From a virus, in the IMG/VR virus record IMGVR_UViG_3300025101_000083: a DNA stretch of 34,619 nucleotides; one strand, written 5' to 3'. Of this stretch, positions 148-34,619 are shown in pieces. Both the position numbers and the translations under genes were made by a program. How positions within the stretch are numbered: position 1 is the first letter of the stretch; every line of letters begins with the position of its first letter. The notes beneath the pieces are model-generated. The model ran no database searches. It saw nothing but the letters and a program-made list of their open reading frames with translations, and was not told the DNA's origin.

Positions 148-1976
148 TGTCCTGTCATCATTCCTTCTCTAACTCCTTGATTACTTCTTTCTCTTTCCAT
201 AGCAGGAGCAGTTATTAAACTTCCTTTAATATAAGGTAAATCTCCTTTTAATGTTTTTCCTAATTTTTTAAAAAATGGACTTCTTGATCTTAATAAAAAA
301 TCTAAGGCTTCTTGTCCTGTTTCAGAATATATACCAGTTCCTATAGCAATGCCTCCTATTGTTAAAGTTGGCTCAACAAAACCAGCAGTTCCTGTACCAA
401 TTGTAGCTAATCTTCTTATATTTTGTTCAGACATACTTAACGCTTCTCTACCACCATAAAACGTACCCTCTTCGCCTAAGGCTTCTGCACCAGCTTCAGC
501 AATAGTTTGACCAGGTATTTTACCTAATCCAAAATTTACTTTATCTCTTGAATTATCTCCTGCTCTAATTGCTTTTAAATAAGCATTAGGAGTAAATGTT
601 CCTAATTTTGAATTTATATCAGACGCTGCTACTTTCATAGCATGAAGTTGTCCATAACCAGAATCTATTTTTGCTAATTGTTTTCCTAAATCTCCATTTT
701 GACTGTAAAAATTTTTCTTTAATGTTTTTCTAACACTTTCTAAGGCAAAAGCCTCATCTAATGTTTCAGGATTTTTAAATAATTTTATTATTTTAGCTCT
801 TAAACCAGAGTCCATTCTTTTAAAATCTTCTCCTGATATTTCTAAAGTTCCTTTAGGTTTACCAGCCATAAAATCAAATTCTTTAAAATTAGTGTATATT
901 TCATCATCTATGTAATCTTGTACTGTTTTTCTTGCTTTAGGTGTTCTTAAACCTGCTTCATTTAAAGAATCTAACACTTCTTTTGTTATTTTAGTACCAT
1001 TTAATGAAAATTTTGTTCCTTTTAATGTTTGATTATATGCCTCATCTAATTGTTTAGCAGCATAATTTAAAGCTGGTCTACCTATAACTTTTGTTTTTGG
1101 TATTTCATTTCTAAAAGGTATTGGCAATGTATCTAATGCTTTGTTAATCAATCCTTCATTAAACTTATATAAAACTTTTTGTTGTTGATTTTCAATTTGT
1201 TTTCCTATTATTGGTAAAAATTTAGCAAATTCTTCTATATTTTTTACAGCCCCTCCAAAAGTTTGTCCTGTAGTGGGTCTAACACCTAGATTACGCATTA
1301 ATTTTTCTGCTTCAGATACTACAGGATCTAACACTTTTCCTGTTCCTGTAACTACAGCTTCTCCTGCTAAACCAGTTAAAGTACCTCCAGCAACTAGTTT
1401 ACCTTTTTCATAAACAAAATCTATTTGATTTTTTTCATCAGTTACTGGAGTTCCTAATCCTTGTGTTGCTCCTACTACCATTGATTTAACAAATTTAGGA
1501 GCTTTTTCAACAAGTTCAACTGTTTTAAGTGCTGTTACAAAACTAGTAGGGTTAAGTATATTAAAAAAAGTTCTATCAAAATCATATCCTTTTTCACCAC
1601 TTTCTAATCTTCTTGCTTGATAAGCATTTTCTTCATCTGCTATTGTTTCATTTAATCTTTTAGATTCGTTTTCTAACCATTTACTAACTTGATTAGGACT
1701 TAAACCAAATCCTGACGCTATTTTTGATAAGGTATAAGGCAATAATTGGGCGTAAGCATCTATAGGATCTTTTAAACCTTTTACTGTTCCACTAGGAATA
1801 TACTTTTCTCCAAAAGGTTTTACATCAAAACCAGAAAGACCAGTAAAATCTTCAGGGGCTTCTTCAACATCAGAAACACCTTTTGATCTTAATTCAGAAG
1901 CAATTTGATCTATTTCTTCTTCTGATAATTTGTTAGGAGTTCTAATTTTTTTACCATCTATTATGTATGTAGGCAT
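144..1976 (-). CDS. large virion-associated protein (putative internal/ejection protein), 610 aa
   Basis: Long ORF at the distal end of the structural operon, after the tail genes, in the position of T7 gp14-16. No catalytic motif recognised. Very AT-rich and K/N/I-rich. Confidence 0.45.
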   Translation of the reverse strand: MPTYIIDGKKIRTPNKLSEEEIDQIASELRSKGVSDVEEAPEDFTGLSGFDVKPFGEKYIPSGTVKGLKDPIDAYAQLLPYTLSKIASGFGLSPNQVSKWLENESKRLNETIADEENAYQARRLESGEKGYDFDRTFFNILNPTSFVTALKTVELVEKAPKFVKSMVVGATQGLGTPVTDEKNQIDFVYEKGKLVAGGTLTGLAGEAVVTGTGKVLDPVVSEAEKLMRNLGVRPTTGQTFGGAVKNIEEFAKFLPIIGKQIENQQQKVLYKFNEGLINKALDTLPIPFRNEIPKTKVIGRPALNYAAKQLDEAYNQTLKGTKFSLNGTKITKEVLDSLNEAGLRTPKARKTVQDYIDDEIYTNFKEFDFMAGKPKGTLEISGEDFKRMDSGLRAKIIKLFKNPETLDEAFALESVRKTLKKNFYSQNGDLGKQLAKIDSGYGQLHAMKVAASDINSKLGTFTPNAYLKAIRAGDNSRDKVNFGLGKIPGQTIAEAGAEALGEEGTFYGGREALSMSEQNIRRLATIGTGTAGFVEPTLTIGGIAIGTGIYSETGQEALDFLLRSRSPFFKKLGKTLKGDLPYIKGSLITAPAMERERSNQGVREGMMTGQ

Positions 1977-1987
1977 TATTAATTCCT

Positions 1988-3406
1988 TTAATTTTCAACA
2001 ATTGTGTATGATGTGCCTTTAGTTGTAAAACCTATCTCTTCATTATAGTATTTATATAATTTAAATAAGTCATCATCTTCTTTAATATTTACTCTAAATA
2101 TATCAATATTTTTATTATAATTATTTTTTAATGTTTTAAAAAGCCTAGATAATATTTTTTCTCTTCCTAAAGAAGATAAAGATAATTTATTACCTTTTAC
2201 TTCACGCATAAAATTTAATTCTTCATTAGAGTCATTACCTCCTAATAATTTCATACTTTGTAATACATTATCTGCTGTTAAAGACTGTATAAATTCTGTA
2301 TTTGCTATTTTTAACTTTTCTTCTTCTGACACAAATGCTTGATTTTTTATTTTTGCTATTTGTTGTTTTATTTCTGCAAAAGTACCACTAAAAGGAGTAC
2401 CATCAATTTTTTTTCCTTGTGAATCTTTAAATGTATTTCCTTGCGCATCTTTATTTTTAAGTAGTAGAACCGCTTTTCTAACACTATCAATAACTGATGT
2501 TCCATTATTTAAAACTTTTTCTACAGTCTCAGCACTCTTAGTTAAAAATTCTTTTTTAAATGGATTTTCTTCATCTTTAGTAGGAGGATGCATTTTTTCA
2601 TACTCTTCAACAAATATTTTTTGATCTTCAGTAGCATTTCCTTTGCGTATATTAAATCTAGCTTCTATGTATGCTTCTTTATTAAATTTTTTATCTTTTG
2701 GGTTAACTTTATACACTAATTTATCTACTGTTTTATACCATTTATCAGGATTATTAGGATTTTGTAATACTGCTTTTCTTACTTCTCCTATACTTTCCAT
2801 TGTGTGTTTACCACCTTTAATTAAATTATTTAAAAATATTATAGGATCTCTAGCATTTTGATAGGCTTCTGTTTCAGATTTTTTAGTTTCAAAAGCATTA
2901 ATTATTTCTTTTTCTGTTACTTCACCTTTTTGTTTAGCAGTTTGTAATTCTTCATAAGTTTTATAAAATTTACCACCAATAAATAAATTTTGCTGTATTT
3001 CAGGAGGAAGTTTTGTTTCCCTGCTTTTATTTGCAATTCTTACCCTTTCAGCTTCTTTAATTAAGTTATGACCTACTAACTGAATATTAGGATTAGGGTT
3101 ATCAATTAATTTAGTGCCTGCTGCTATTAGTCCCTCTGGTGTATTAGGGTCACCAACATTTAACACAGCATCTGTATAAGCTGTTTTTATCTCTTGCAAC
3201 TGTTGAGCTTGTGCTTCTTCTGGTGTTTGTTGTCCAAATAAACGTCTAACACTACCTTGTAACTGCTCTCCACTTTGTGTAATACGCTGTGTTATGGCAG
3301 ACATAGGTGACATAGCACCTCTACCTAGAGTGATAGGTTGTTGTAAAGCATTATTTTGTTGTGTTAATAAACTACTAAACAAACCTTCTGTTATTTCTTG
3401 TGCCAT
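1988..3406 (-). CDS. large virion-associated protein (putative internal/ejection protein), 472 aa
   Basis: Long ORF, same operon and same AT-rich composition as 144..1976. Function inferred from position only. Confidence 0.4.
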   Translation of the reverse strand: MAQEITEGLFSSLLTQQNNALQQPITLGRGAMSPMSAITQRITQSGEQLQGSVRRLFGQQTPEEAQAQQLQEIKTAYTDAVLNVGDPNTPEGLIAAGTKLIDNPNPNIQLVGHNLIKEAERVRIANKSRETKLPPEIQQNLFIGGKFYKTYEELQTAKQKGEVTEKEIINAFETKKSETEAYQNARDPIIFLNNLIKGGKHTMESIGEVRKAVLQNPNNPDKWYKTVDKLVYKVNPKDKKFNKEAYIEARFNIRKGNATEDQKIFVEEYEKMHPPTKDEENPFKKEFLTKSAETVEKVLNNGTSVIDSVRKAVLLLKNKDAQGNTFKDSQGKKIDGTPFSGTFAEIKQQIAKIKNQAFVSEEEKLKIANTEFIQSLTADNVLQSMKLLGGNDSNEELNFMREVKGNKLSLSSLGREKILSRLFKTLKNNYNKNIDIFRVNIKEDDDLFKLYKYYNEEIGFTTKGTSYTIVEN

Positions 3407-3415
3407 GTTTACTCC

Positions 3416-5809
3416 TTATTCTGTAGCAGTTTTAGGTTGTAATATTTTTGCTAACTCTACTATTTGTTGTATCTGATTTGCGTTTACATTACCTTGTTGT
3501 GTAGGCAACCCAAACAGTCCTTTAGCACCAGATGTTAAACCTCTTAGTTTTTCTATTTCTGATAAAGCAACTAATTGATCATATTGTGACCTAGCACTTA
3601 ATCCAGATAGTTCTGGTCTTTGTTGTAGTGTAGCTGATATATCTCTACCAGTAGTTAAACCAGTTAGTGCTGCTTCATCTATCTTCTGCGCCCCTGTTAG
3701 TAAACCAGAACCTAAAGTAGCTTGTCTTTGTGCTTCTGTTAGCCCAAACTGTTGTGCTGCTAATGCTTCTTGTGATCTAGCAGTTTCTTGAGCAGATAGT
3801 ATAGACTCAGCTAATGGATTAACTCTGCGTTGACCTCCTACAGTTGGCATAGTCTGACCATAACCTAGCAAACCTCTCTGTGCTAGTGTACCTAACATTC
3901 TTTCTTGTTCTCTTTGTCTCTGTGGCTCAGTCAATGCTCTAGTAGCTGCTAATTGCTGTGCTGTAGCTTCTTCTCTAGTACCTGGTAATCCTTCAAACAT
4001 TCCTCTAGCTGCATCAAGTTGTGCTGTTCTAAGAGGTTGATAATCAGCACCTACAGTAGCAGTAGCTCCTTCTGGTGCTACAGTTCCTGTTCCAAAACCA
4101 GTAGTAACTGTGTATGGTCTAAATACACTTTCATACTCTTTTTGTATATCTTCACCACGTTCTTCTAAAGAACTTTGTAAAGCTGATAAACCAGCATAAT
4201 CTATACCAGTTCCTATAATGTTTTCTAAAACACCTCCTGCTGTATCACCAAACACTTCTTTTAAGTCAATAAATTTACTAGCTTCTTCTACTACCTTTCC
4301 TACTGCTTCTTTTCCTACAACACCTGCACCTGCTGCTTTTATAATATCATCTACTGCTTTTGTAGCACTCTTTGCATCAGTAATAGTTAAACCACCAGTA
4401 GTAGCATCAATACCTACTTCTCCGCCAGTTAATAAAGGTAAATCACTAGTTAAATCAGCAAATGTTTTTGATTGATCTAATGATGGAACACCTAATCCAG
4501 TAGTAACTCCTTCACCTATTCCTGCTAAAGAATCACCTAGACTACCAAACTGTGGCTCTACAAGAGAAGGAACAGCATCAGCTACTTGTGTAAAACCTCC
4601 AGGTGCAGGATATATTTCTTCAGTTCTTGATAAAAGATCAGTAGTAACTCCTTCACCTAGTCCTGATAAAGAATTACCTCTAGGTATGTTTAAAGTTTCT
4701 ACTGTGTCTGCTTCTAGTATATTATTATCAACTAAATAATCACCAAACTTACCTGATTGTAAAGCATCTACACCATAGGTTACACCATAAGCCATAGTGG
4801 CAGCAAGTAAAGCATCTTCTACATCTCTTCCTAGTGCTAAACTAGTACTTCCTGCTACCACAGCATTACCTACAGCAGTAGCTGCTGTTCCAGTTGCGTT
4901 ACCCCCAGTAATAAAACTTCCTATTCGTGGTGCATAAGCACCTCCTGCCAAAGTAGCAGCTACTGTAGCAAATGTTACTAAATTTTTATCAGAGGTATCT
5001 TGATACAAAGGATAGAAAATAGGTTGATCTCCAACAAACTTAACATTTAAGTCTGCACCACCTTCTACACCTGAATACAGATTACCAAATGATGTAGACT
5101 CTTCACCTCCACTGCGTAATGTGCCACCACCTGCAAATACGTCTACTGTTTCTCCTGTTTTCTTATTGAACAACTCATCCATAGAACTAGGTAGAGTTGC
5201 TATATACATCTTTTCTGTAGCTCCTTGACCTAGAGGTCTACCTGTATCTACTTCCTTAACAGTGCTAGGTTGTACTTCTATTCTTTTACCAACTCCCATT
5301 GCGGTAGTAGGTTCTTCACTGTAATAATATTTAAAATTACCAGTATTAGGATCAGCAATTCTTTCTACTTCTACATTTTGTTTAGTTGTATCTACACTTC
5401 TTTTACCTAAGTCATATATACTATCTACACCAGCTTTAGCAAACTCTTTAGCTTGTTCTTCTATAATATAGTCTAAATCACTAGGATTTACATAATCAAA
5501 CCCTTTTGCTTCTAATACATTATATTGTGCCTTAAATTCATCTCTAAGATTATTAACTCTTTGTTCATAAGACGTAGTATCGTCTGTAACGCTTTCACGA
5601 GCCTGTGACTGCTCTCTTGTCTCTGTAAATAGGTTAGGGCTACTAACGTCTCCAGAGGGCTGTGGTGGGGCTGTGGTGGATTCTGGAGACGTAGCAGCTA
5701 ACCTCATTGCATCTTGTTCTTGTTGTGTTAATCTAGGAGCAACAGAAGGGTCTATGCCTTGTGCAAGTTGCTGTTCTTGAAACATTCTGTAAGCATCTAG
5801 GATACTCAT
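3416..5809 (-). CDS. large virion protein, 797 aa (putative internal core / ejection protein)
   Basis: Largest ORF of the structural arm. Gly/Ala/Thr-rich centre and a Q/A-rich predicted helical C-terminus. Start overlaps the upstream stop by 4 nt. Function assigned by position only. Confidence 0.45.
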   Translation of the reverse strand: MSILDAYRMFQEQQLAQGIDPSVAPRLTQQEQDAMRLAATSPESTTAPPQPSGDVSSPNLFTETREQSQARESVTDDTTSYEQRVNNLRDEFKAQYNVLEAKGFDYVNPSDLDYIIEEQAKEFAKAGVDSIYDLGKRSVDTTKQNVEVERIADPNTGNFKYYYSEEPTTAMGVGKRIEVQPSTVKEVDTGRPLGQGATEKMYIATLPSSMDELFNKKTGETVDVFAGGGTLRSGGEESTSFGNLYSGVEGGADLNVKFVGDQPIFYPLYQDTSDKNLVTFATVAATLAGGAYAPRIGSFITGGNATGTAATAVGNAVVAGSTSLALGRDVEDALLAATMAYGVTYGVDALQSGKFGDYLVDNNILEADTVETLNIPRGNSLSGLGEGVTTDLLSRTEEIYPAPGGFTQVADAVPSLVEPQFGSLGDSLAGIGEGVTTGLGVPSLDQSKTFADLTSDLPLLTGGEVGIDATTGGLTITDAKSATKAVDDIIKAAGAGVVGKEAVGKVVEEASKFIDLKEVFGDTAGGVLENIIGTGIDYAGLSALQSSLEERGEDIQKEYESVFRPYTVTTGFGTGTVAPEGATATVGADYQPLRTAQLDAARGMFEGLPGTREEATAQQLAATRALTEPQRQREQERMLGTLAQRGLLGYGQTMPTVGGQRRVNPLAESILSAQETARSQEALAAQQFGLTEAQRQATLGSGLLTGAQKIDEAALTGLTTGRDISATLQQRPELSGLSARSQYDQLVALSEIEKLRGLTSGAKGLFGLPTQQGNVNANQIQQIVELAKILQPKTATE

Positions 5810-6042
5810 GAGTATGACCCTCCCTCTATTGAACCACCAGATAATGTACCTGATAGTACAACATTTGTAATTGTTGCTGTGCCTGTCACCGCTGGGGAGG
5901 CACTATTAGCTTTCGTCGCAACTGCTGTAGCAATATTATCAAATTCAGTATTAATTTCCGTTCCTTTAACGATTTTGTTTGGATCTCCACTGTTTAACGT
6001 ATCCTTTGCTGCGAAGTTAGTTGTTTTTGAATAATTACTCAT
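5806..6042 (-). CDS. small tail-fibre-like protein, 78 aa
   Basis: The N-terminus (NFAAKDTLNSGDPNKIVKGTEINTEFDNIATAV) has the pattern I associate with podovirus fibre N-termini, and an SPAVTG motif is present. It ends IEGGSYS, like 12613..13155. Confidence 0.5.
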   Translation of the reverse strand: MSNYSKTTNFAAKDTLNSGDPNKIVKGTEINTEFDNIATAVATKANSASPAVTGTATITNVVLSGTLSGGSIEGGSYS

Positions 6043-7658
6043 TATATAGTCCTTCCTAGAACTGAATAAATATCTATCTTTTGTATTGATAGAGGGTTAC
6101 TATCTATTGATGCGTTTACTCCTACTTGTAAAATAGTACCATTTCCTGATAATTGTGTACTAAGTTTGTCAATAAATACAGAAGCTGAATATTCTGCTAC
6201 ATTGTATTCTGCTGTACCATACTCAGCAATGTTTCCTTGTTTTGTTTGTATATCAGCATTATTAAAACTGTTTTCATAATCAAAAGCCCATTTTAAAGCT
6301 AATGTAGTATTAATAGCACCTATGACTGTTACATTAATCTTTTTAGGTATCTTAGTTACAGCAGGATTACCAAAGTCTAAATATGGTGATAAATAACTAA
6401 ATACATAACTAGAACCACCATCAGTAAAGTTTTTATACTCTGCTATACCATTAGGTTGTCCTAACAGTAACCTGTTGTCATTTGTTACCGCTAATGATGA
6501 TGGGTCTATACTATCCCATCTAGTTACTCTGTATGAACCATCAGGTAGTGTTGCTCTTACATCAAAACAAAATGTAAAACCTGAAGCTGGTAAAGTTAGT
6601 AAATAAAATGCTTCTTTCTCATAGTATACACTTCTTATCTCATCTTTGCTCTCTACTGCTACAAGAGAAAGAAAGTTATCTCTTACATTCTTTGACAAGT
6701 CTCTTAGTGGTGCTGACTTCTCTTGTATGGTTCTACCTAGACTTCTTAGACCACTATCAGATAGAAATACTAAATCAGTACCTATAACTTGTACAGAGTC
6801 TCTTGCAATACAACCTGTACCTACTATCACATCATTTAATGATATATTACTTATATCATCTGCATTTTGATATAATACAATGTGATGTTCACAGAATATT
6901 ACTAGAAAGTTATTATGTGCAGCTAGTGCTGTTATCTTGTCACCACCAGGTACAACTTTCTCTAGGTTTAACTGTCCTGAACCTGAACCAGTAAATTCTG
7001 ATCCTTCTAATAATCTACTATGATATATTGTTAATGGATCATTTACTATATTAGCCATCCACATTCTACCAAAAGCTGATAATGCTACGTTTGGTGTAAA
7101 AGTAGTTGCACTATAACCAGAAGGAACACTACCTACATCTACTAATCTTTGAAACCCAAAGTCTCCTGTATGAGAATGACTACCTCCACCACCTGTAGGT
7201 AACTTATGGTATACTAAAGTAGGATGTCCTTTCTGTACTGCATACATGTGTGGACTAAAATTAAGACCACTTTCATATTCTGCTTGTTTAAACTGCCAGT
7301 TGTTATCTGTTATAGTATATGTAAGAGTAGCACTACCATCAGTTGCATATACAGGCATAGCAGACATAGTGCCTTCACCTCTATACAACTTTTCATCACC
7401 ACCACTAATAATAGTATGTGATCCTGTAGCTGTATAATTATCAAACTCTACCATACACTCTGGTAGTGTTGATGTACCACCAGCAGTTGTCTGATACTCC
7501 CAACCTCTTCTAGCAGCCATTCTACCAGACTTATCAATCACAGCATTGTCTGCTTCTAATGTAAATGACAAGTCAAGAGTTACACCAGAGTCTTGTGTGT
7601 TAATACCAAAGAAGCCTGGTGATGTTATTGCTACTGGTTGTATAGGTTTGTTAGGCAT
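6042..7658 (-). CDS. tail tubular protein B-like (nozzle) protein
   Basis: About 538 aa, directly after the adaptor-like gene. I prefer ATG 7658 (TAATG overlap with the upstream stop) over the track's GTG at 7673. Call rests on synteny with the T7 gp11-gp12 order. Confidence 0.5.
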   Translation of the reverse strand: MPNKPIQPVAITSPGFFGINTQDSGVTLDLSFTLEADNAVIDKSGRMAARRGWEYQTTAGGTSTLPECMVEFDNYTATGSHTIISGGDEKLYRGEGTMSAMPVYATDGSATLTYTITDNNWQFKQAEYESGLNFSPHMYAVQKGHPTLVYHKLPTGGGGSHSHTGDFGFQRLVDVGSVPSGYSATTFTPNVALSAFGRMWMANIVNDPLTIYHSRLLEGSEFTGSGSGQLNLEKVVPGGDKITALAAHNNFLVIFCEHHIVLYQNADDISNISLNDVIVGTGCIARDSVQVIGTDLVFLSDSGLRSLGRTIQEKSAPLRDLSKNVRDNFLSLVAVESKDEIRSVYYEKEAFYLLTLPASGFTFCFDVRATLPDGSYRVTRWDSIDPSSLAVTNDNRLLLGQPNGIAEYKNFTDGGSSYVFSYLSPYLDFGNPAVTKIPKKINVTVIGAINTTLALKWAFDYENSFNNADIQTKQGNIAEYGTAEYNVAEYSASVFIDKLSTQLSGNGTILQVGVNASIDSNPLSIQKIDIYSVLGRTI

Positions 7659-10214: not shown

Positions 10215-11852
10215 CTATGCGTTCATAGTTATTACAACAATTCCATCAGCTCCATTTCCACCATTTGTTCCTGATCCGCCTTTTCCAGCACCACCTCCAC
10301 CAGAACCAGTAAAGGACGTTCCATTACTACCATTTCCAGTTACAGAACCATCTCCGCCCACAGAGGAACTTCCACCTGTTCCTGCTGAATCAGCTCCAAA
10401 CGCACCGCCCCCTCCACCTGCTGAATAAACAACAGATGAACCAGTTATTGAAGATGCTGTTCCGTTACCTCCGTTTCCACCTGAATTTGTACCTGAAGCA
10501 TCAGAACCCGCACTAGTAGAACCACCTCCACCGCCTCCACCATTTTGCCCACTATTAGCATCTCCTCCATCATTGCCTTGAGATGGAGTAGTTGAAGGCG
10601 TATTTCCACTACCACCTACTCTTCCGTTAGATGCCCCTCCACCAGACCCTCCGTTTTTCCCATTTGCTCCTGCGGTTCCTCCAATTCCATAACCTCCTGC
10701 ACCACCTCCAGTAGAAGTAATTGTTGAAAACACAGAGTTATTTCCATCACCACCATAAGAACCACCACCAGTTCCTGTACCGCCTCCACCTACTGTAATT
10801 GTGTATTCTGTACCAGAAGTAACTGATAAAGATGTACCAGTTCTAAAACCTCCAGCACCACCTCCACCACCGCCACCGTTAGATGGTGTTCCTCCCCCTG
10901 AACCACCTCCTGCAACTACTAAGTAATCTACAGAAGATACTCCAACGGGGCATTTCCATTTTGTTGTGCCTCTAAATATTAGTGGTGAACTTGTAGGTAC
11001 TGTGTATTTGATAACTACAATTCCTGAACCACCTGCTTTTCCATCCTTAAAAGTTCCACTACCACCGCCACCTCCACCACCGCCTCCACCAGTGTTAGCT
11101 GTGCCTGCCGAACCCCCTGTACCATTACTACCTTGTGTTCCACTGCCTCCGCCACCAGAGCCACCAGATGCATTAATGTTATCTCCTGCACCACCACCAC
11201 CACCTGCGTATGTTACAGATGCACCAGTTATGGTAGATGCTTGACCGTTACCTCCACTTCCTGCGGCAAAAGGAGATGATGTAGCATCTCCTCCTACAGC
11301 ACTAGCACCACCGCCTCCACCTGCGGCATTTGTAACAGCAGAAGACCCTCCGTTTTTACCTTGAAAAGCAACAGCAGGCGCTCCATTACCACCATCTGAT
11401 GAAAGATTAGGGGTGTTACCAGAGCCATTAGAGCCGTTACCGCCTCCACCACCTCCAGAGCCTCCGTTACGACCGTTTCCACCACCAGCACCACCGCCTC
11501 CACCTGCTGTTGAGGTTATGGTAGAAAATACTGAATCATTACCATCAAAACCTGAAGTATTACTAGTAACATCTAAAGCAGTAGCACCTGCACCTACAGT
11601 AATTGTATATTCTGTTCCTGCGGTAACAGCTAATGAAGTGCCTGTTCTAAATCCTCCAGCACCTGCTCCACCACCATTTTGATTTACTCCAGTACCGCCT
11701 CCACCACCTCCTGCAACTACAAGATAATCAACACTTGTAACGCCAGTAGGGCAAGTCCAAACAGTATTACCTAAAAAACTTTCAATAACTACAACTCCAC
11801 CTACAGAGGCAACAGAAAAATTAGAAAATAATAATTGATGTATTCCAGTCAT
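10215..11852 (-). CDS. glycine-rich structural (fibre/receptor-binding-like) protein with internal tandem duplication, 545 aa
   Basis: Two homologous halves (WTCPTGVTSVDYLVVAGGGGGG...FRTGTSLAVTAGTEYTITVG and WKCPVGVSSVDYLVVAGGGSGG...FRTGTSLSVTSGTEYTITVG). CCTCCTGCAACTAC occurs at 10906 and 11707, an offset of 801 nt. Confidence 0.6.
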   Translation of the reverse strand: MTGIHQLLFSNFSVASVGGVVVIESFLGNTVWTCPTGVTSVDYLVVAGGGGGGTGVNQNGGGAGAGGFRTGTSLAVTAGTEYTITVGAGATALDVTSNTSGFDGNDSVFSTITSTAGGGGGAGGGNGRNGGSGGGGGGNGSNGSGNTPNLSSDGGNGAPAVAFQGKNGGSSAVTNAAGGGGGASAVGGDATSSPFAAGSGGNGQASTITGASVTYAGGGGGAGDNINASGGSGGGGSGTQGSNGTGGSAGTANTGGGGGGGGGGSGTFKDGKAGGSGIVVIKYTVPTSSPLIFRGTTKWKCPVGVSSVDYLVVAGGGSGGGTPSNGGGGGGGAGGFRTGTSLSVTSGTEYTITVGGGGTGTGGGSYGGDGNNSVFSTITSTGGGAGGYGIGGTAGANGKNGGSGGGASNGRVGGSGNTPSTTPSQGNDGGDANSGQNGGGGGGGSTSAGSDASGTNSGGNGGNGTASSITGSSVVYSAGGGGGAFGADSAGTGGSSSVGGDGSVTGNGSNGTSFTGSGGGGAGKGGSGTNGGNGADGIVVITMNA

Positions 11853-15871: not shown

Positions 15872-15887
15872 TGGCACGTTTTTTGCT
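15872..15887 (+). promoter_or_regulatory. sigma-54 consensus match TGGCACGTTTTTTGCT, antisense to the late genes
   Basis: Exact TGGCAC-N5-TTGC spacing read on the plus strand. Its orientation would give transcription antisense to portal and terminase. Confidence 0.25.
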
Positions 15888-17941: not shown

Positions 17942-19195
17942 TTAGTAGCCTGTTATCATGTCTAGTGGTTCATATTCTTCTTCTTCATAGTATGTAGTAT
18001 ATTCTGGTATCTGTACCTGTGTGATATACGACAAAGCATCTATTAAATCATCATGCACCTGTGGGTTAGGAAACTGTAACAACTGATCTAAGAACTCTTT
18101 ATTCCATTCTCCTTTATTCAGAGTAATTTTACCATGCTCAAACCTACCCTGTAATGCCCATGTAATTCTATCAATCTTTTTCTTGTTTCCATGAGTTACA
18201 TCTTCTACTCTGAAGTAGGTGTTGTATTGACGCATCATATCTGACAAGTAACCCATTACTGCATTTTTACCAATACCTTTTTCTATTCCTACACACAAAG
18301 GCTGAAAGTCTGTTACTGCTTGAAATATCTTAGAAGCAGTCTTCTTAATATCCCAACGACCATGTTCTATACTATGAACCCACCATCTATCTTCATCTAC
18401 TTTTACTATTGCTATAGCGGTTTGGTCTAGTCTTTTCTTCCTAGCAGTGTTAGCATGAGCTACATCAGAGAATCCTGCAATATCACAAGCTATATACCAT
18501 CTACCTCTTTCTGGTTCTTGTTCATCATACTGTATCCAGTCTTCTTTGAATAAACCACCACTAGCAGCTTCAAAAGAAGCCATAAACTCTTGTCTGAAAG
18601 CAAAGCTAGACATTGACTTTCTAGCTGCTTCTATCTCTTTTGGGTCTAGTAAATCATTATCAAAAGAGTTAAAATGCCATGCTTTGAACTCTGAATCACC
18701 GCTATCGTTAGCGTAGTTGTATAAATCAAAGAAATGGTTTCTACCATAAGGTGTGCCTATAAACAACGCAGAGCCTTTCTGGTCAGCTAGAGCAGGTCTG
18801 ATAATAGTTTCCCATACCTCTGACTTCATAGAGCCATACTCGTCCATTACAACAAACTTTAGAGATACTCCACGCATTGTCTCTGGTCTATCTGCACCTT
18901 TCAATGATATTGTAGTACCATTGATGAGTTTAATCTGTAGATTATTAATATGACTAGAATCTACTACTGGGTGTCCTAACTCAAGAAGAGTAGACCACAT
19001 TACATCTCTAGCCTGTCCCTGAGTGTTGGCTATGTACCAGACATGACCTTTCTCAGTTTGAAGAGCATTAATAATTAATAACCATGCTGCTAGTCTGGAT
19101 TTACCAGTTCTTCTACCAGCTACTACTACTTTGAATCTAGTGGTATCATTCCATACCTTCTGTTGCCATGATAGTAACTTTACATCAAGCTCCAT
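17942..19195 (-). CDS. terL: terminase large subunit
   Basis: Walker A-like VVVAGRRTGKS and Walker B KFVVMDEYG. Nuclease-domain acidic motifs YIACDIAG and VHDDLIDALSY. Confidence 0.93.
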   Translation of the reverse strand: MELDVKLLSWQQKVWNDTTRFKVVVAGRRTGKSRLAAWLLIINALQTEKGHVWYIANTQGQARDVMWSTLLELGHPVVDSSHINNLQIKLINGTTISLKGADRPETMRGVSLKFVVMDEYGSMKSEVWETIIRPALADQKGSALFIGTPYGRNHFFDLYNYANDSGDSEFKAWHFNSFDNDLLDPKEIEAARKSMSSFAFRQEFMASFEAASGGLFKEDWIQYDEQEPERGRWYIACDIAGFSDVAHANTARKKRLDQTAIAIVKVDEDRWWVHSIEHGRWDIKKTASKIFQAVTDFQPLCVGIEKGIGKNAVMGYLSDMMRQYNTYFRVEDVTHGNKKKIDRITWALQGRFEHGKITLNKGEWNKEFLDQLLQFPNPQVHDDLIDALSYITQVQIPEYTTYYEEEEYEPLDMITGY

Positions 19196-19661
19196 CAGAA
19201 TCCTCTATTACTATAGGTTTTGGTTCTGCTGCTGATGATATGTTGATTGTTATTCCTTTGTTTAGTTGTTTGTCTTTTTCAAATATAGAAGTAGGTAATG
19301 CTCTATCCATTAGTAGCTTCAGTGCTGCCATCTGATGTGGGTGTTCATCAGTCATGGCTATGTCTATTGTTTTCTTGAGAACCCTGTCACCATTGGTAAT
19401 GAGCATCCTAGCCATAAGTTCTCTAATCTTTTGTGTTTCTTCTCGTTTTGAGACAAGAGAACTCTTTTTTCTCTTTGTTTTGAGAGCAACATACTCCATT
19501 TCCTTCTTAGAGGGTCTACCAGGTCTTCTCTTTACTTTAGTGCCTACTGGTGTGAGAGTCTTGGCTTTAGTAGCGTATGTTCTTTTCTTCTCTTGTTCTA
19601 TTGAGCTTTGAGTAGAGTCTTTTAACTCCTCCTCAATATTCTTAGAGTGTTCGATATCCAT
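19185..19661 (-). CDS. terminase small subunit (putative)
   Basis: 158 aa, first gene of the late arm, overlapping terL by 11 nt. Basic KRRPGRPSKKE DNA-binding-like segment. Confidence 0.55.
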   Translation of the reverse strand: MDIEHSKNIEEELKDSTQSSIEQEKKRTYATKAKTLTPVGTKVKRRPGRPSKKEMEYVALKTKRKKSSLVSKREETQKIRELMARMLITNGDRVLKKTIDIAMTDEHPHQMAALKLLMDRALPTSIFEKDKQLNKGITINISSAAEPKPIVIEDSDGA

Positions 19662-19806
19662 TGATTTCCTATACTCATTATATAGGTCAATATAGTTATA
19701 ATGTTCATAGTAATTTATAATAAGAATAATAAATGATTATTAATAATTAATTACTATGAAACTGAATGTCCAGTATGACTATATAGACTCTTTCTTCAAA
19801 AGCATA

Positions 19807-19835
19807 ATTCTAGCATATTTTTATTGATTTGTCAA
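19807..19835 (-). promoter_or_regulatory. sigma-70 promoter for the left (structural) arm: TTGACA-N17-TAGAAT
   Basis: Minus strand reads gTTGACAaatcaataaaaatatgcTAGAATtatgc, about 145 nt upstream of the terS ATG. Confidence 0.65.
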
Positions 19836-19913
19836 CTACTTTTTTTAGTGTCGGTGTGGGTTCAGCATAAATACAACACTACAGCATACCCCCTCCCCCC
19901 ATATCAATCAAGT

Positions 19914-19929
19914 TGGCATGATTCTTGCA
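19914..19929 (+). promoter_or_regulatory. sigma-54-type -24/-12 element TGGCATGATTCTTGCA
   Basis: GG and GC dinucleotides at the canonical spacing (TGGCAY-N5-TTGC). Faces the early arm. Confidence 0.45.
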
Positions 19930-19931
19930 TA

Positions 19932-19947
19932 AGCAATTTCTGTGCCA
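19932..19947 (-). promoter_or_regulatory. sigma-54-type -24/-12 element TGGCACAGAAATTGCT
   Basis: Reverse complement of AGCAATTTCTGTGCCA. Faces the structural arm. Confidence 0.45.
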
Positions 19948-19976
19948 CAATAACCATTCAAGCAGCAGAGGTATTA

Positions 19977-19992
19977 TGGCATGATAATTGCT
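19977..19992 (+). promoter_or_regulatory. sigma-54-type -24/-12 element TGGCATGATAATTGCT
   Basis: Same core (TGGCATGAT..TTGC) as the two flanking plus-strand copies. Confidence 0.45.
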
Positions 19993-20028
19993 AGTGTCAA
20001 CTAAAGTTTACAGTTGTAATTGTAAAGT

Positions 20029-20044
20029 TGGCATGATTCTTGCG
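20029..20044 (+). promoter_or_regulatory. sigma-54-type -24/-12 element TGGCATGATTCTTGCG
   Basis: Second copy of the 19-bp repeat. Faces the early arm. Confidence 0.45.
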
Positions 20045-20098
20045 TGTGTTTCTATGTTGCACCACAACGTAGCATTATGCACAATCTTGGTGCATCTA

Positions 20099-20152
20099 AT
20101 ACTTTAGTATATTATACTTTAGTATCAATCAGTTATCATAGTTTTAAACTAT
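20099..20152. repeat. AT-rich segment with a 12-bp direct repeat ATACTTTAGTAT (20099-20110, 20114-20125) and a 15-bp palindrome ATAGTTTtAAACTAT (20138-20152)
   Basis: Read directly. Lies 50-100 bp upstream of the early promoter, so it may be an operator or origin-like element. Confidence 0.6.
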
Positions 20153-20204
20153 CAAATTAAAACAATTAATAGTTAAATAAAATACAATTAATTACATAAA
20201 ATGC

Positions 20205-20233
20205 TTGACATATAATTAGTGTATAATTATATT
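20205..20233 (+). promoter_or_regulatory. sigma-70 early promoter TTGACA-N17-TATATT
   Basis: gcTTGACAtataattagtgtataatTATATTg, followed by GAGGAG and the ATG at 20268. Confidence 0.6.
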
Positions 20234-20267
20234 GTTAATACAGTATGTTTAAACGAGGAGGTATTAT

Positions 20268-20621
20268 ATGTTTAAAGTAGATTATTTTAATAAGAAAGTA
20301 AGAAATAATAAGAGACTAGCTGGACAATTAGCTGGTAAATATGAATTTTTTGGTAAACATAACAGATTTGCTATTGCGCCAGTACACACTAGATTTGATA
20401 AGGTAGATTGGTTCTGCTGGGATGCTGAAAAACTAGATAAATATCCACATCCTAGAACCCATCTCTACACTAAAGAAATAATCGGACAAAAAGATTCTTA
20501 CAGAGAAGCAAGGGATTTTATTATCACTACCATTCAAAATGATCCTAAAGAAATTAAAGAAAGAAAAGAATTACTTTCTAGGATTGTATGTGAACACATA
20601 ATGACTAAAAGAATATATTAA
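20268..20621 (+). CDS. early hypothetical protein, 117 aa
   Basis: First ORF of the early arm with a strong RBS (GAGGAG). No motif recognised. Confidence 0.7.
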   Translation: MFKVDYFNKKVRNNKRLAGQLAGKYEFFGKHNRFAIAPVHTRFDKVDWFCWDAEKLDKYPHPRTHLYTKEIIGQKDSYREARDFIITTIQNDPKEIKERKELLSRIVCEHIMTKRIY

Positions 20622-27937: not shown

Positions 27938-28193
27938 TGATGTACGTTCAACATCTATGGGTTGTGGCGGTGAAGATATACAGCTATCACCAGTTGCTAG
28001 GAAGAAGCTGAATGTTTCTATTGAATGCAAAAGTAGGGCTAGGGTTGCTGTATACGGCTTCTATGAACAAGCTACAGTTAACTGTCCTAGTGGTGCAGAA
28101 CCAGTTGTTGTGGTTAAGCAAAATAGATGTAGTCCTTTATGTGTGGTTGCTGCTGAACATTATTTTGAACTATTAAGAAAGGCTAACTCTTGA
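27849..28193 (+). CDS. PD-(D/E)xK Holliday-junction resolvase-like endonuclease
   Basis: TTG start with GGAAGGA upstream. Hjc-like layout: RKGKGRSLQQWVRDLI, GGEDIQL (Asp) and SIECKS (E-x-K). Confidence 0.6.
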   Translation: MKTSSRKGKGRSLQQWVRDLIIEKFKLTSDDVRSTSMGCGGEDIQLSPVARKKLNVSIECKSRARVAVYGFYEQATVNCPSGAEPVVVVKQNRCSPLCVVAAEHYFELLRKANS

Positions 28194-28963
28194 AAGCTCA
28201 TCAAAAAAAAAGAAGAGAGGAAATAGCTGAGTTAGAAAGCAAAAACCTCTTAGATTTTTATTGGAATGATATAGATACAGACATAAAAAAAGCAGTGGTT
28301 AAACCAGTATCCTTAAAAGATGCTAAAAAAATTATAGAGCAGTATGAATGGTTAGGATGCTTATCTGCTATAAATAAGTATCAGTTTGGGATTTTCTTTG
28401 ATGGTGTTTGTGCTGGGGTTGTTGTTTATGGGACTGACTACATAGAAAATTTAGGCAAATGGGATAAGTATGGATACACAGGAAAAATAATTTTATTAAA
28501 TAGAGGAGCTTGTGTTCATTGGGCACATCCTCATTCCGCTAGTAAATTAATAAGCACTTCTATAAAAATGTTACCAGATAAATATAAAGTAATAACAGCA
28601 ACTGTAGATGATCTTGCAGGAGAGATAGGGACTATATATCAAGCTTGTAATTTCCACTACATAGGTTCTATGAGAGACTCTAACCCTAATGTTAAAAGTA
28701 AAAAAGGAGATAGATGTGGATGGTTAATTAACAACAAGCTGTATGGAGCCAGAGCTATTAGACAAAAATACGGAACAACACAATTAGAAATAATAAAAAA
28801 ACATCATCCAGATGTCAAAAAGGTAAAACAAAACAGTAAAAAAAGATACTTTTATTTTAAAGGAACAAAAAAAGAAAAAAGAGAATTATTTAGGTCAATA
28901 AAACATTTAGTAAAACCATACCCAAAAAGAAAGGAAACTCTTGAAACATTTAATTATACCTGA
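28190..28963 (+). CDS. Mom-like / GNAT-fold protein (possible DNA base-modification enzyme)
   Basis: TTG start (CTTGA overlap). AKKIIEQYEWLG..YQFGIFFDGVCAGVVVYG...LNRGAC...SASKLIS...GEIGTIYQACNFHYIG follows the pattern I remember for Mom-family proteins. Unverified by search. Confidence 0.4.
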   Translation: MKAHQKKRREEIAELESKNLLDFYWNDIDTDIKKAVVKPVSLKDAKKIIEQYEWLGCLSAINKYQFGIFFDGVCAGVVVYGTDYIENLGKWDKYGYTGKIILLNRGACVHWAHPHSASKLISTSIKMLPDKYKVITATVDDLAGEIGTIYQACNFHYIGSMRDSNPNVKSKKGDRCGWLINNKLYGARAIRQKYGTTQLEIIKKHHPDVKKVKQNSKKRYFYFKGTKKEKRELFRSIKHLVKPYPKRKETLETFNYT

Positions 28964-32086: not shown

Positions 32087-32218
32087 ATGTGGGAGATTAC
32101 ACCAATATCAGGAGTAATGGTAGGAGTAGAGTATCAACATGATGCTAATGATTATAAGTATTTAGTTATAGACTTTTTTCTTGTGAGGTTTACTTTTCAT
32201 TATGATGCTAGTGAATAA
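32087..32218 (+). CDS. possible 43-aa ORF
   Basis: ATG 2 nt after the reductase stop. Product is MWEITPISGVMVGVEYQHDANDYKYLVIDFFLVRFTFHYDASE. Overlaps the cytochrome start. Confidence 0.25.
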   Translation: MWEITPISGVMVGVEYQHDANDYKYLVIDFFLVRFTFHYDASE

Positions 32219-32516
32219 AATGATAATACTATTGATAGCACTATTATTTAATCCTGTATTTGCAGGTGATATAAAACTAGGTGAAGCAAAGTTTAATAAG
32301 AACTGTAAGCAGTGTCATGGACCAGCAGGTATGGGTCTAGCTAGTTATCCAAAGGTGTCTGGTAATGATATTGCTTACACTATAGATAGACTAAAAAACT
32401 ATAGAGCAGGTATTGAAATAGGACCAAACTCATCTTTAATGATAATGATGGCTAGACCTTTATCTGATGTAGATATTGAAAACTTAGCAGCTTACTTAAA
32501 GGAAGCAAAGAGGTAA
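32202..32516 (+). CDS. secreted monohaem c-type cytochrome (c4/c553-like)
   Basis: Signal peptide MMLVNKMIILLIALLFNPVFA|GD. Haem motif CKQCH. Distal Met region SSLMIMMA. C-terminal LSDVDIENLAAYL typical of class I cytochromes c. Confidence 0.85.
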   Translation: MMLVNKMIILLIALLFNPVFAGDIKLGEAKFNKNCKQCHGPAGMGLASYPKVSGNDIAYTIDRLKNYRAGIEIGPNSSLMIMMARPLSDVDIENLAAYLKEAKR

Positions 32517-33978: not shown

Positions 33979-34170
33979 TTATGTTGTATAATATTTCTTC
34001 TTTATTTTACAGCCATTCTCAGTCTCTACTTCAAACCAGTTAAACCCTTTATACTCATTAGCACACCAATAAATACACAATCCTCTTTCCATTCGTTGTA
34101 GCCTACAGTAGTATTGTTCTCTTTGTGGTATTATAGTTACTAACATAGTAGATAGTAGTATTTCTATCAT
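33979..34170 (-). CDS. small Cys-containing membrane-anchored protein, 63 aa (lysis-cassette associated)
   Basis: N-terminal hydrophobic segment and 4 Cys. ATGA coupling to the upstream gene. No lipobox seen. Confidence 0.45.
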   Translation of the reverse strand: MIEILLSTMLVTIIPQREQYYCRLQRMERGLCIYWCANEYKGFNWFEVETENGCKIKKKYYTT

Positions 34171-34619
34171 TGTACTCCCTTTATTGAGTCAATTAAGAAC
34201 TGCACCATCCACCATCCAGCCATAAGCAGAACAGCTATAATAGATAACATAGTGGAATTGTAAATGAGTTCTTTACGTTTGCGTATTTGTTGGTATACCT
34301 GAGCTTCTCGTTTGCGTTGAATTGACCTTCTAATCTGTATTAGCTGTTTATAACCATCTGCACCAAGATGGTGCAATGAACCCCAGTAGAACATATGCTT
34401 TAGTTCTTTCTCCATCTCTTTAATTCTTTGTCTTGCAGCAAGTTCATCAAATGCTTCTGCTGTGCTTGACTTAGTGTAAGTAATCTTCTTGAATATAGAT
34501 GGCTTACTTTCTTCTTGTGTTAAACAGAACTTTACATCTTCTACCGCAGAAGCCCATTTACCTAGCTGTGAGAATACTTCTTGAGCTTCTTTACCATAGT
34601 TTACTGCTGTCTTGATACC
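34167..34619 (-). CDS. 3' part of the junction-spanning gene; the full product is 166 aa with a C-terminal TM helix
   Basis: The frame is open from 34619 down to the TGA at 34167, and the true ATG is at window position 147. Full gene is complement(join(34167..34520,1..147)). The track's 82-aa version starts at an internal Met. Confidence 0.75.
   Translation of the reverse strand, partial: GIKTAVNYGKEAQEVFSQLGKWASAVEDVKFCLTQEESKPSIFKKITYTKSSTAEAFDELAARQRIKEMEKELKHMFYWGSLHHLGADGYKQLIQIRRSIQRKREAQVYQQIRKRKELIYNSTMLSIIAVLLMAGWWMVQFLIDSIKGVQ
34521..34619. repeat. 99-bp exact direct terminal repeat, copy 2
   Basis: Identical to 1-99. Confidence 0.95.

Follow-up and report, generated by a model that had tools for sequence, protein, structure and literature searches.

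Between the two divergent gene arms of the viral DNA studied here, the IMG/VR virus record IMGVR_UViG_3300025101_000083 (34,619 nucleotides, referred to at its full length as the window), lie four sequences with the -24/-12 pattern of promoters served by sigma-54 (RpoN), an alternative sigma factor, and next to them lies a dyad of the type recognised by the enhancer-binding activator NtrC. On the basis of the sequence patterns described below, we consider it fairly probable that these four boxes are genuine sites of the host sigma-54 RNA polymerase, that the activator NtrC is borrowed from the host, and that transcription of the phage is tied to nitrogen limitation. A marine phage would thereby probably tie its transcription to the nitrogen-stress circuit of its host. 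A preliminary description of the same DNA had offered two readings, either a coupling to a host RpoN/activator circuit or iterons or operators that imitate the motif and serve a phage protein. The first is favoured here, as it is supported by the NtrC dyad, by the agreement of free box positions with the sigma-54 consensus, by the conservation of box cores but not of spacers, and by the spread of the boxes over unrelated phage lineages, whereas the second is disfavoured for reasons that are discussed together with the other alternatives.

Sigma-54 boxes at the junction of the two arms

The four sigma-54-like sequences that the preliminary description had seen in the divergent control region are all present (Table 1). 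Each of them fits TGGCAY-N5-TTGC with zero mismatches, the GG and the GC being exactly 10 bp apart. It also holds that three boxes point toward the replication arm and one toward the structural arm, and that two of them, boxes 1 and 4, lie within an exact 19-bp direct repeat, AAGTTGGCATGATTCTTGC, which occurs at 19910-19928 and 20025-20043. Boxes 1 and 2 form a face-to-face pair with a gap of 4 bp. Agreement extends to the wider sigma-54 consensus (Y at -27, G/R at -20/-19, T at -18/-17, W at -11), the sequence in the window being AAGT-TGGCATGATTCTTGC-A. In Escherichia coli, the RpoN holoenzyme has the consensus TGGCACnnTTnTTGC, and NtrC has the consensus TGCACCAnnnTGGTGCA (PMC8743547).

About 0.1 chance matches had been estimated for the window, and the comparison with shuffled sequence that had been suggested as a check agrees with this estimate: in 100 dinucleotide-preserving shuffles, TGGCAY-N5-TTGC was found 0.11 +/- 0.35 times, as opposed to five matches in the window, and none of the 100 shuffles reached five. 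Four of the five matches fall within 130 bp of non-coding DNA at the arm junction, where the boxes occupy a 250-bp island of 41% GC that is flanked by DNA of only 19-21% GC. The two sigma-70-like promoters that had been listed, one per arm, were both found, and a third, unlisted one is directed leftward and overlaps box 3. An RNA gene at the control region was ruled out, as Rfam gave no match at gathering score for the whole window and none at E<=1 for 19600-20320, as there is no tRNA or tmRNA in the window, and as the leftward leader folds no better than shuffled sequences (z = +1.35).

The fifth strict box of the window, TGGCACGTTTTTTGC at 15872-15886 (+), is found between the portal gene and the gene following it, antisense to both. 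It abuts an ATG at 15871-15869 and is kept in near-identical relatives only.

Table 1. Features of the control region and of the two gene arms of the window; predicted starts refer to transcription from the respective box.
Feature	Position	Strand	Sequence or content	Remarks
Box 1	19914-19928	+	TGGCATGATTCTTGC	faces replication arm; predicted start ~19940
Box 2	19933-19947	-	TGGCACAGAAATTGC	faces TerS-like/TerL arm; predicted start ~19921
Box 3	19977-19991	+	TGGCATGATAATTGC	predicted start ~20003
Box 4	20029-20043	+	TGGCATGATTCTTGC	predicted start ~20055
NtrC-type dyad	20078-20094	strandless	TGCACAATCTTGGTGCA	exact TGCAC-N7-GTGCA
Degenerate NtrC-like site	20058-20074	strandless	TGCACCACAACGTAGCA	one good half-site
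G6AG5 tract	19889-19900	-	C5TC6 on +	starts 21 nt downstream of predicted start of box 2
Conserved block	19853-19867	strandless	GGTGTGGGTTCAGCA	
Sigma-70-like promoter, packaging/structural arm	19807-19835	-	TTGACA-17-TAGAAT	TG before second hexamer
Second leftward sigma-70-like promoter	19973-20000	-	TTGACA-16-CATAAT	overlaps box 3
Sigma-70-like promoter, replication arm	20205-20233	+	TTGACA-17-TATATT	
First gene of left arm	19185-19661	-	158-aa AT-hook protein, presumed small terminase (TerS-like)	coding region overlaps start of TerL
First gene of right (early/replication) arm	20268-20621	+	117-aa protein	
Left arm		-	TerL (Terminase_6N/6C), SU10-type portal, capsid protein, glycine-rich protein, tail-like proteins	
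Right arm		+	SprT-like protein, T7-type primase-helicase, family A DNA polymerase, 5'-3' exonuclease	
Right arm, further genes		+	Mom-family protein, class II ribonucleotide reductase, cytochrome c553	

An NtrC-type enhancer beside the boxes

It had been noted that no gene for an enhancer-binding activator is recognisable in this DNA, and indeed none was detected among 27 window proteins scanned against Pfam, which included every open reading frame of at least 200 amino acids on the coding strand of its arm. The puzzle of the missing activator is answered by an NtrC-type dyad beside the boxes that the preliminary description had overlooked, as the activator would then be provided by the host. 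This dyad, TGCACAATCTTGGTGCA, belongs to the 17-bp NtrC dyads of the form TGCACCA-N3-TGGTGCA through its exact TGCAC-N7-GTGCA. It is accompanied by a second, degenerate site, and the centres of the two are 20 bp apart. NtrC enhancers have two or more sites on one face of the helix, by which oligomerisation is allowed; here, the second site has only one good half-site. With respect to the predicted start of box 2, the centres are located at -145 and -165, which is the canonical position, an activator of sigma-54 promoters usually being bound 80-170 bp upstream, but they are downstream of boxes 1, 3 and 4. In relatives of the phage, the half-sites of the main dyad are kept while its centre varies, and the TGCACCA half of the degenerate site is likewise conserved.

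When one mismatch was allowed, TGCAC-N7-GTGCA was found twice in the window, both times exactly, versus 0.76 matches expected, and two exact dyads in 34.6 kb are far above chance. The second exact dyad, TGCACCAAGATGGTGCA at 34359-34375, has nearly the full consensus and is situated inside the 5' part of a small minus-strand open reading frame (34167-34415), with no sigma-54 box nearby.

Conservation of the boxes in related phages

A retrieval from IMG/VR that was based on the large terminase subunit (TerL) yielded 80 related loci. The conservation of the boxes in related phages, which had been proposed as a check, is seen in relatives with 88-100% TerL identity: these carry three to six boxes at the homologous site, in which the TGGCA and TTGC cores are kept while the spacers vary, and this is the pattern expected of protein-binding sites that are recognised via their cores. 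Individual boxes are gained, lost or degenerate among close relatives. In two of them (L010 and L007), an NtrC-like dyad stands exactly where box 1 would be, box 2 is retained in six of eight aligned relatives and has its GG core changed to GT in L005 and L002, box 4 is degenerate (TCGC) in L004 and L012, and L013 has six boxes, five of which are arranged in tandem at intervals of 25-29 bp toward the terminase genes. The G6AG5 tract and the block GGTGTGGGTTCAGCA are more strongly conserved across relatives than the boxes. The tract is invariant in nine aligned relatives, and of the block, alignment columns 98-111 (GTGTGGGTTCAGCA) are identical in all nine, including the most divergent L013 and L002, with the first G of the block being present in eight of the nine.

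Dispersed boxes in relatives with 60-69% TerL identity were rejected as promoters, as they lie inside the portal gene and encode the residues FGTGIAE. Locus L063, a relative with 56% TerL identity, has no sigma-54 boxes and carries two LexA-like CTGT-N8-ACAG boxes in the equivalent region (4678-4722). Locus L074 has a 12-bp tandem repeat, GGTGACTCAGGT, in six copies. Judged from such sequences, it seems that the regulatory sites gathered at the arm junction differ from one lineage to another.

Box clusters in unrelated phages

A scan with exact 15-mers found boxes in at least 120 viral contigs, about half of which contain clusters of two to nine boxes, at GC contents of 31-62%. A second scan was independent of the window's own sequence in that it searched for face-to-face units whose boxes are 3-4 bp apart, and it added at least 96 new loci. 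Among the matches listed, 95 of 97 such units have unrelated spacers and are not hairpins, and 56 of 97 have at least three boxes within 300 bp, with GC contents of 30-68%. Overall, box clusters occur in more than 200 viral contigs, again spanning 30-68% GC. In the non-redundant set of neighbouring boxes, the gaps of face-to-face pairs show sharp peaks, one at 3-4 bp (20 of 37 gaps) and another at 7 bp.

The positions of the boxes that were not constrained by the search pattern follow the sigma-54 consensus. In 173 boxes, from which the seed 15-mer was excluded, position -27 is T in 59%, position -20 is a purine in 98% and position -19 in 82%, and A or T is found at -11 in 89% and at -10 in 82%. 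The usual place of a cluster is just upstream of a small gene and TerL. In 30 of 56 loci, TerL is no more than 4 kb away, and homologues of the TerS-like family have a median distance of 383 bp from box clusters (18 loci). The small proteins that adjoin the clusters are not homologous between lineages, and the TerL of the group represented by locus L154 is too divergent from that of the window to be detected by tblastn. That the same boxes occur beside non-homologous small proteins and divergent TerL speaks for recognition by a host factor that is universally conserved, and against recognition by a phage protein specific to one lineage. In L154 itself (1227-3550, 56% GC), TerL is preceded by a 295-aa open reading frame whose PHROGs matches are intein-containing large terminases only, and which may be a split or intein-derived terminase segment.

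A different arrangement was found in the unrelated 46-kb viral contig IMGVR_UViG_3300006916_000082 (L097), where six boxes between 1017 and 11367 all lie on the gene-sense strand. At least four of the six are intergenic and just upstream of a start codon, one of them before an SSB-like gene, and no NtrC dyad is present in this contig. Judging by the placement of its boxes, which is that of ordinary promoters, sigma-54 promoters may drive a large part of the programme of this phage.

The NtrC dyad is likewise not confined to the window. Eleven copies of GCAC-N7-GTGC lie no farther than 300 bp from one of 37 strictly non-redundant clusters, which corresponds to 0.375 per kb, as compared with 0.015 per kb elsewhere (~25-fold). 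This enrichment is specific to N7, as the other half-site spacings (N3-N6 and N8-N11) gave only zero to two matches beside clusters. The motif is present in seven of the 37 cluster regions, versus ~0.5 expected, and in at least four lineages. Perfect dyads such as TGCACCAATGTGGTGCA are found in unrelated contigs, three NtrC sites with a spacing of 20-21 bp occur in L158, and in L148 a dyad lies ~144 bp upstream of a lone box, which is the textbook arrangement. The association of NtrC dyads with box clusters is thus real, albeit not universal.

A scan of a genome collection for the face-to-face unit, made with hosts and prophages in mind, was discarded as it was dominated by integron attC repeats of Leptospira, which match by chance. 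The contigs of saprophytic Leptospira (L201-L320, e.g. L211 at 1204-6943) contain repeats of ~160 bp between same-strand gene cassettes, with GCATAAC...GTTATGC flanks and the core TGGCAT...TTGC/GCAA...ATGCCA, and these look like attC sites of chromosomal integrons. The remaining matches were single contigs of metagenome-assembled genomes that share no protein with the window.

Vibrio phage VpV262 and other cultured phages

A box cluster was also found in a cultured phage, VpV262 of the Zobellviridae (AY095314; L426). Here, six TGGCAY-N6-TGC boxes are present at 173-346, four of which point toward the early genes, and the whole genome has nine relaxed matches versus 0.74 expected. The cluster begins 35 bp past the 138-bp terminal repeat and includes two face-to-face pairs with 7-bp gaps. 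VpV262 shares with the window phage the layout in two arms, the T7-like replisome and the lack of an RNA polymerase. It differs in that its proteins are only distantly related to those of the window, in that the first T of TTGC is substituted by A or C in five of its six boxes, in that no NtrC dyad is located nearby, and in the opposite polarity of its G-rich motif. This motif, GGAGGGAGGGGAG, closes the terminal repeat and is followed by the six boxes (126-346 in total), a region for which GenBank annotates the terminal repeats only.

As the host of VpV262 is a Vibrio and Vibrio species have rpoN (PMC3439928, PMC9817140), VpV262 represents an immediate experimental system, and its boxes make the idea of phage sigma-54 sites testable now. 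No boxes were found in the whole genome of roseophage SIO1, in the 9.2-9.3 kb loci around TerL of Caulobacter phage RW and MW202545, or in 19.4 kb of ICP2 including its annotated control region. The first 15.8 kb of Vibrio phage 1.070.O and 19.5 kb of MEP402 were likewise free of boxes, their control regions possibly lying beyond these stretches. With several cultured phages lacking them in the stretches scanned, the boxes are a patchy feature and not a family-wide one.

The phage and its genes

The ends of the window overlap by an exact direct repeat of 99 bp (1-99 = 34521-34619), so that the window is a circularly assembled complete genome of ~34.5 kb. It has 36% GC and belongs to a podovirus-like phage with two divergent arms, at whose junction the cumulative GC skew turns. 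Neither DNA nor TerL searches revealed a close cultured relative. The capsid protein and the DNA polymerase gave distant matches only, and those of TerL are likewise remote. No match in Pfam or PHROG was found for the AT-hook protein that starts the left arm. As neither an RNA polymerase nor a sigma factor nor an AAA+ enhancer-binding domain occurs among the 27 scanned proteins, the phage must be transcribed by the host polymerase.

Further genes deserve a brief mention. The Mom-family protein (PF25680, E = 9e-25), encoded at 28190-28963 (+), suggests a DNA base modification by the phage. An extremely glycine-rich protein of 545 amino acids with two Gly_rich_2 domains is encoded at 10215-11852 (-), where the local GC content rises up to 45%. 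The cytochrome c553 (32202-32516, +) has a signal peptide and a CxxCH motif. Its homologues (60-99% identity) are common in marine metagenomes, one being located on a 187-kb phage-like contig. The closest ones lie on other phage-like contigs and also on a cellular contig (31% GC) with a TonB-dependent receptor. One homologue, sought as a clue to the host, is labelled merely 'Alphaproteobacteria bacterium'.

Proposed mechanism, objections and alternatives

If the boxes are host sigma-54 sites, the host sigma-54 holoenzyme would bind to them, and host NtrC that is phosphorylated under nitrogen limitation would open the box-bound complexes from the adjoining enhancer. Leftward transcription would then proceed from box 2 through the G6AG5 tract to the TerS-like gene, TerL and the structural genes, whereas rightward transcription from up to three boxes would lead toward the early genes, and the sigma-54 output would add to or compete with that of the sigma-70 promoters of each arm. 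Paired boxes share the -12-proximal DNA and would hence be mutually exclusive, and such a pair could be a compact two-way promoter. Holoenzyme binding, NtrC activation, the start sites and the identity of the productive boxes are all predictions from motif matches. Any active enhancer-binding protein might also act from solution on boxes with a perfect consensus, and this would explain the clusters without an enhancer. In Salmonella, a DNA-binding-deficient activator fires sigma-54 promoters from solution (PMC3844500).

Several observations weigh against such a promoter function. The dyads are located downstream of boxes 1, 3 and 4, with centres at +11 and +31 in case of box 4, and no NtrC dyad could be recognised for 30 of the 37 non-redundant clusters, nor does any other shared dyad recur in at least four of the cluster regions without NtrC sites. 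Good sigma-70-like promoters are already available for both arms. Face-to-face pairs with gaps of 3-4 bp and tandem boxes at intervals of 25-29 bp cannot all be occupied simultaneously, and every predicted start of a paired box falls within the partner box. In density and overlap, the boxes are unlike known promoters, and a simple promoter function does not explain their arrangement. Most relatives without boxes have the G-tract upstream of TerL as well, and its role is therefore not dependent on sigma-54. Finally, the best cultured matches of the DNA polymerase, with ~50% identity, are those of the SAR11 (Pelagibacter) phages HTVC103P, HTVC104P and HTVC115P, and rpoN is not annotated in at least one SAR11 strain, LSUCC0530 (PMC12113158).

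What alternatives exist for host sigma-54 promoters? The motif is short, and isolated matches such as the codons in the portal gene can be spurious, but a chance or compositional origin of the boxes has virtually no probability left: it is refuted by the shuffles and by the conservation of four clustered non-coding boxes in relatives. A more serious alternative assumes that the boxes do bind the sigma-54 holoenzyme, albeit chiefly as a docking array, in which silent complexes block sigma-70 promoters, insulate the two arms or soak up sigma-54. Closed complexes of sigma-54 are long-lived and remain silent without an ATPase activator, box 3 is situated inside the second leftward sigma-70-like promoter, most clusters have no enhancer, and some loci have up to nine boxes at intervals of 22-29 bp in alternating orientation (L087, L153, L200), which would all suit an array. 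We nevertheless regard this as unlikely, since the enrichment of exact-N7 NtrC dyads beside the clusters, that of the window included, is sensible only if the complexes get opened, and since the polarity of the G-tract, which is strictly downstream and in RNA sense, points to transcription, as do the boxes of L097 with their sense orientation.

It is less likely still that the boxes are sites of a phage-encoded protein that merely resemble sigma-54 sites, be it a terminase that recognises pac or cos, an initiator at origin iterons or a repressor at operators. The clusters indeed adjoin the TerS-like gene and TerL, the cluster of VpV262 lies close to a genome end, many contigs end at clusters, and the GC skew turns at the junction. 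A terminase site (pac or cosB) would agree with the adjacency to terS, but not with an identical motif beside non-homologous small proteins, in different TerL lineages and over a GC range of 30-68%. Origin iterons, being direct repeats in phase that adjoin an initiator gene and AT-rich DNA to be unwound, would agree with the AT-rich flanks and the skew turn, yet the orientation of the boxes is mixed, their spacing is irregular (63 and 52 bp in the window), and neither an initiator nor a repressor gene is recognisable. Moreover, the free positions follow the consensus of sigma-54, and a second host motif, the NtrC dyad, co-occurs at its exact spacing. The coupling to host sigma-54 and NtrC therefore remains the reading that we favour.

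The G-tract and a possible replication origin

The conserved G6AG5 tract has a defined relation to the boxes. In 18 non-redundant contexts, a G3+AG3+ motif lies downstream of a box on its own strand, whereas it is upstream in none and inverted in one. A similar tract is known from mitochondrial DNA, where conserved sequence block II (CSBII) has the sequence G5-6AG7-8 and where a hybrid quadruplex or R-loop arises when it is transcribed and primes replication by a T7-like replisome, and also T7 polymerase responds to G6AG5-15 tracts (PMC3488243, PMC4176368, PMC5027508). The window resembles the arrangement of the mitochondrial light-strand promoter (LSP) and CSBII in having a G5-6AG5-8 tract on the RNA-like strand shortly downstream of a promoter, here a putative one, together with a T7-type replisome of primase-helicase and family A polymerase. 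It differs in that the transcript would come from a multisubunit bacterial polymerase, and an R-loop or quadruplex is hypothetical here. Position and polarity of the tract fit a CSBII-type origin, and the tract also occurs in box-less relatives.

It is conceivable, though on balance improbable, that the box clusters, and especially the unit TGGCAY-N5-TTGC-(3-4 bp)-GCAA-N5-RTGCCA, constitute a widespread, undescribed control module by which phages recruit the host sigma-54 polymerase at a genome junction or end, that in the family of this phage the leftward transcript through the G6AG5 tract serves as the R-loop primer of an origin of the T7/mitochondrion type, and that replication is thereby gated by host NtrC. 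A terminus or packaging signal would explain the tract just as simply as the role in origin priming. If the origin hypothesis is true, the face-to-face unit with its CSBII-like tract may link phage origins to the priming of mitochondrial DNA replication.

Comparison with known systems

According to current understanding, phages rely on sigma-70 promoters or bring a polymerase or a sigma factor of their own, and nitrogen starvation is a dominant condition in the surface ocean. If our interpretation is correct, a lytic marine phage with sigma-54 boxes and an NtrC enhancer senses the nitrogen starvation of its host directly, and it would be the heterotroph counterpart of cyanophages with NtcA and PhoB sites. 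In open-access papers and bioRxiv, we found no earlier account of phage genomes that carry sigma-54 or NtrC sites. The co-option of a host regulator by a phage via a known promoter class is the known part of this system, while the clustered, face-to-face architecture is the undescribed part.

The closest bacterial counterparts are the NtrC-activated sigma-54 promoters of the glnAp2 type in Proteobacteria, which share with the window the -24/-12 element TGGCAC-N5-TTGC, the absence of a -35/-10 element and, in case of box 2, a pair of 17-bp NtrC dyads 145-165 bp upstream. In contrast to glnAp2, the window belongs to a lytic phage genome, has four boxes within 130 bp, two of them face to face, and has its enhancer downstream of three of these boxes. 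With respect to the use of host regulators, the cyanophages, which carry NtcA and PhoB boxes, are comparable, and CtrA sites, the nearest parallel in the papers searched, occur in phages of Alphaproteobacteria (PMC9437464). As in the window, lytic phages thus carry sites of a physiological regulator of the host that couple infection to the host state, but the window phage differs in that it would co-opt an alternative sigma factor plus its enhancer-binding activator. With respect to arrangement, finally, the box clusters resemble the early promoters of phage T7, as in both cases several promoters for the host polymerase, putative ones in the clusters, are packed at a genome junction or end and lead into the early genes. 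The T7 promoters A1-A3, which are clustered at the left end of the genome, are of the sigma-70 type, do not depend on an activator and all point in one direction.

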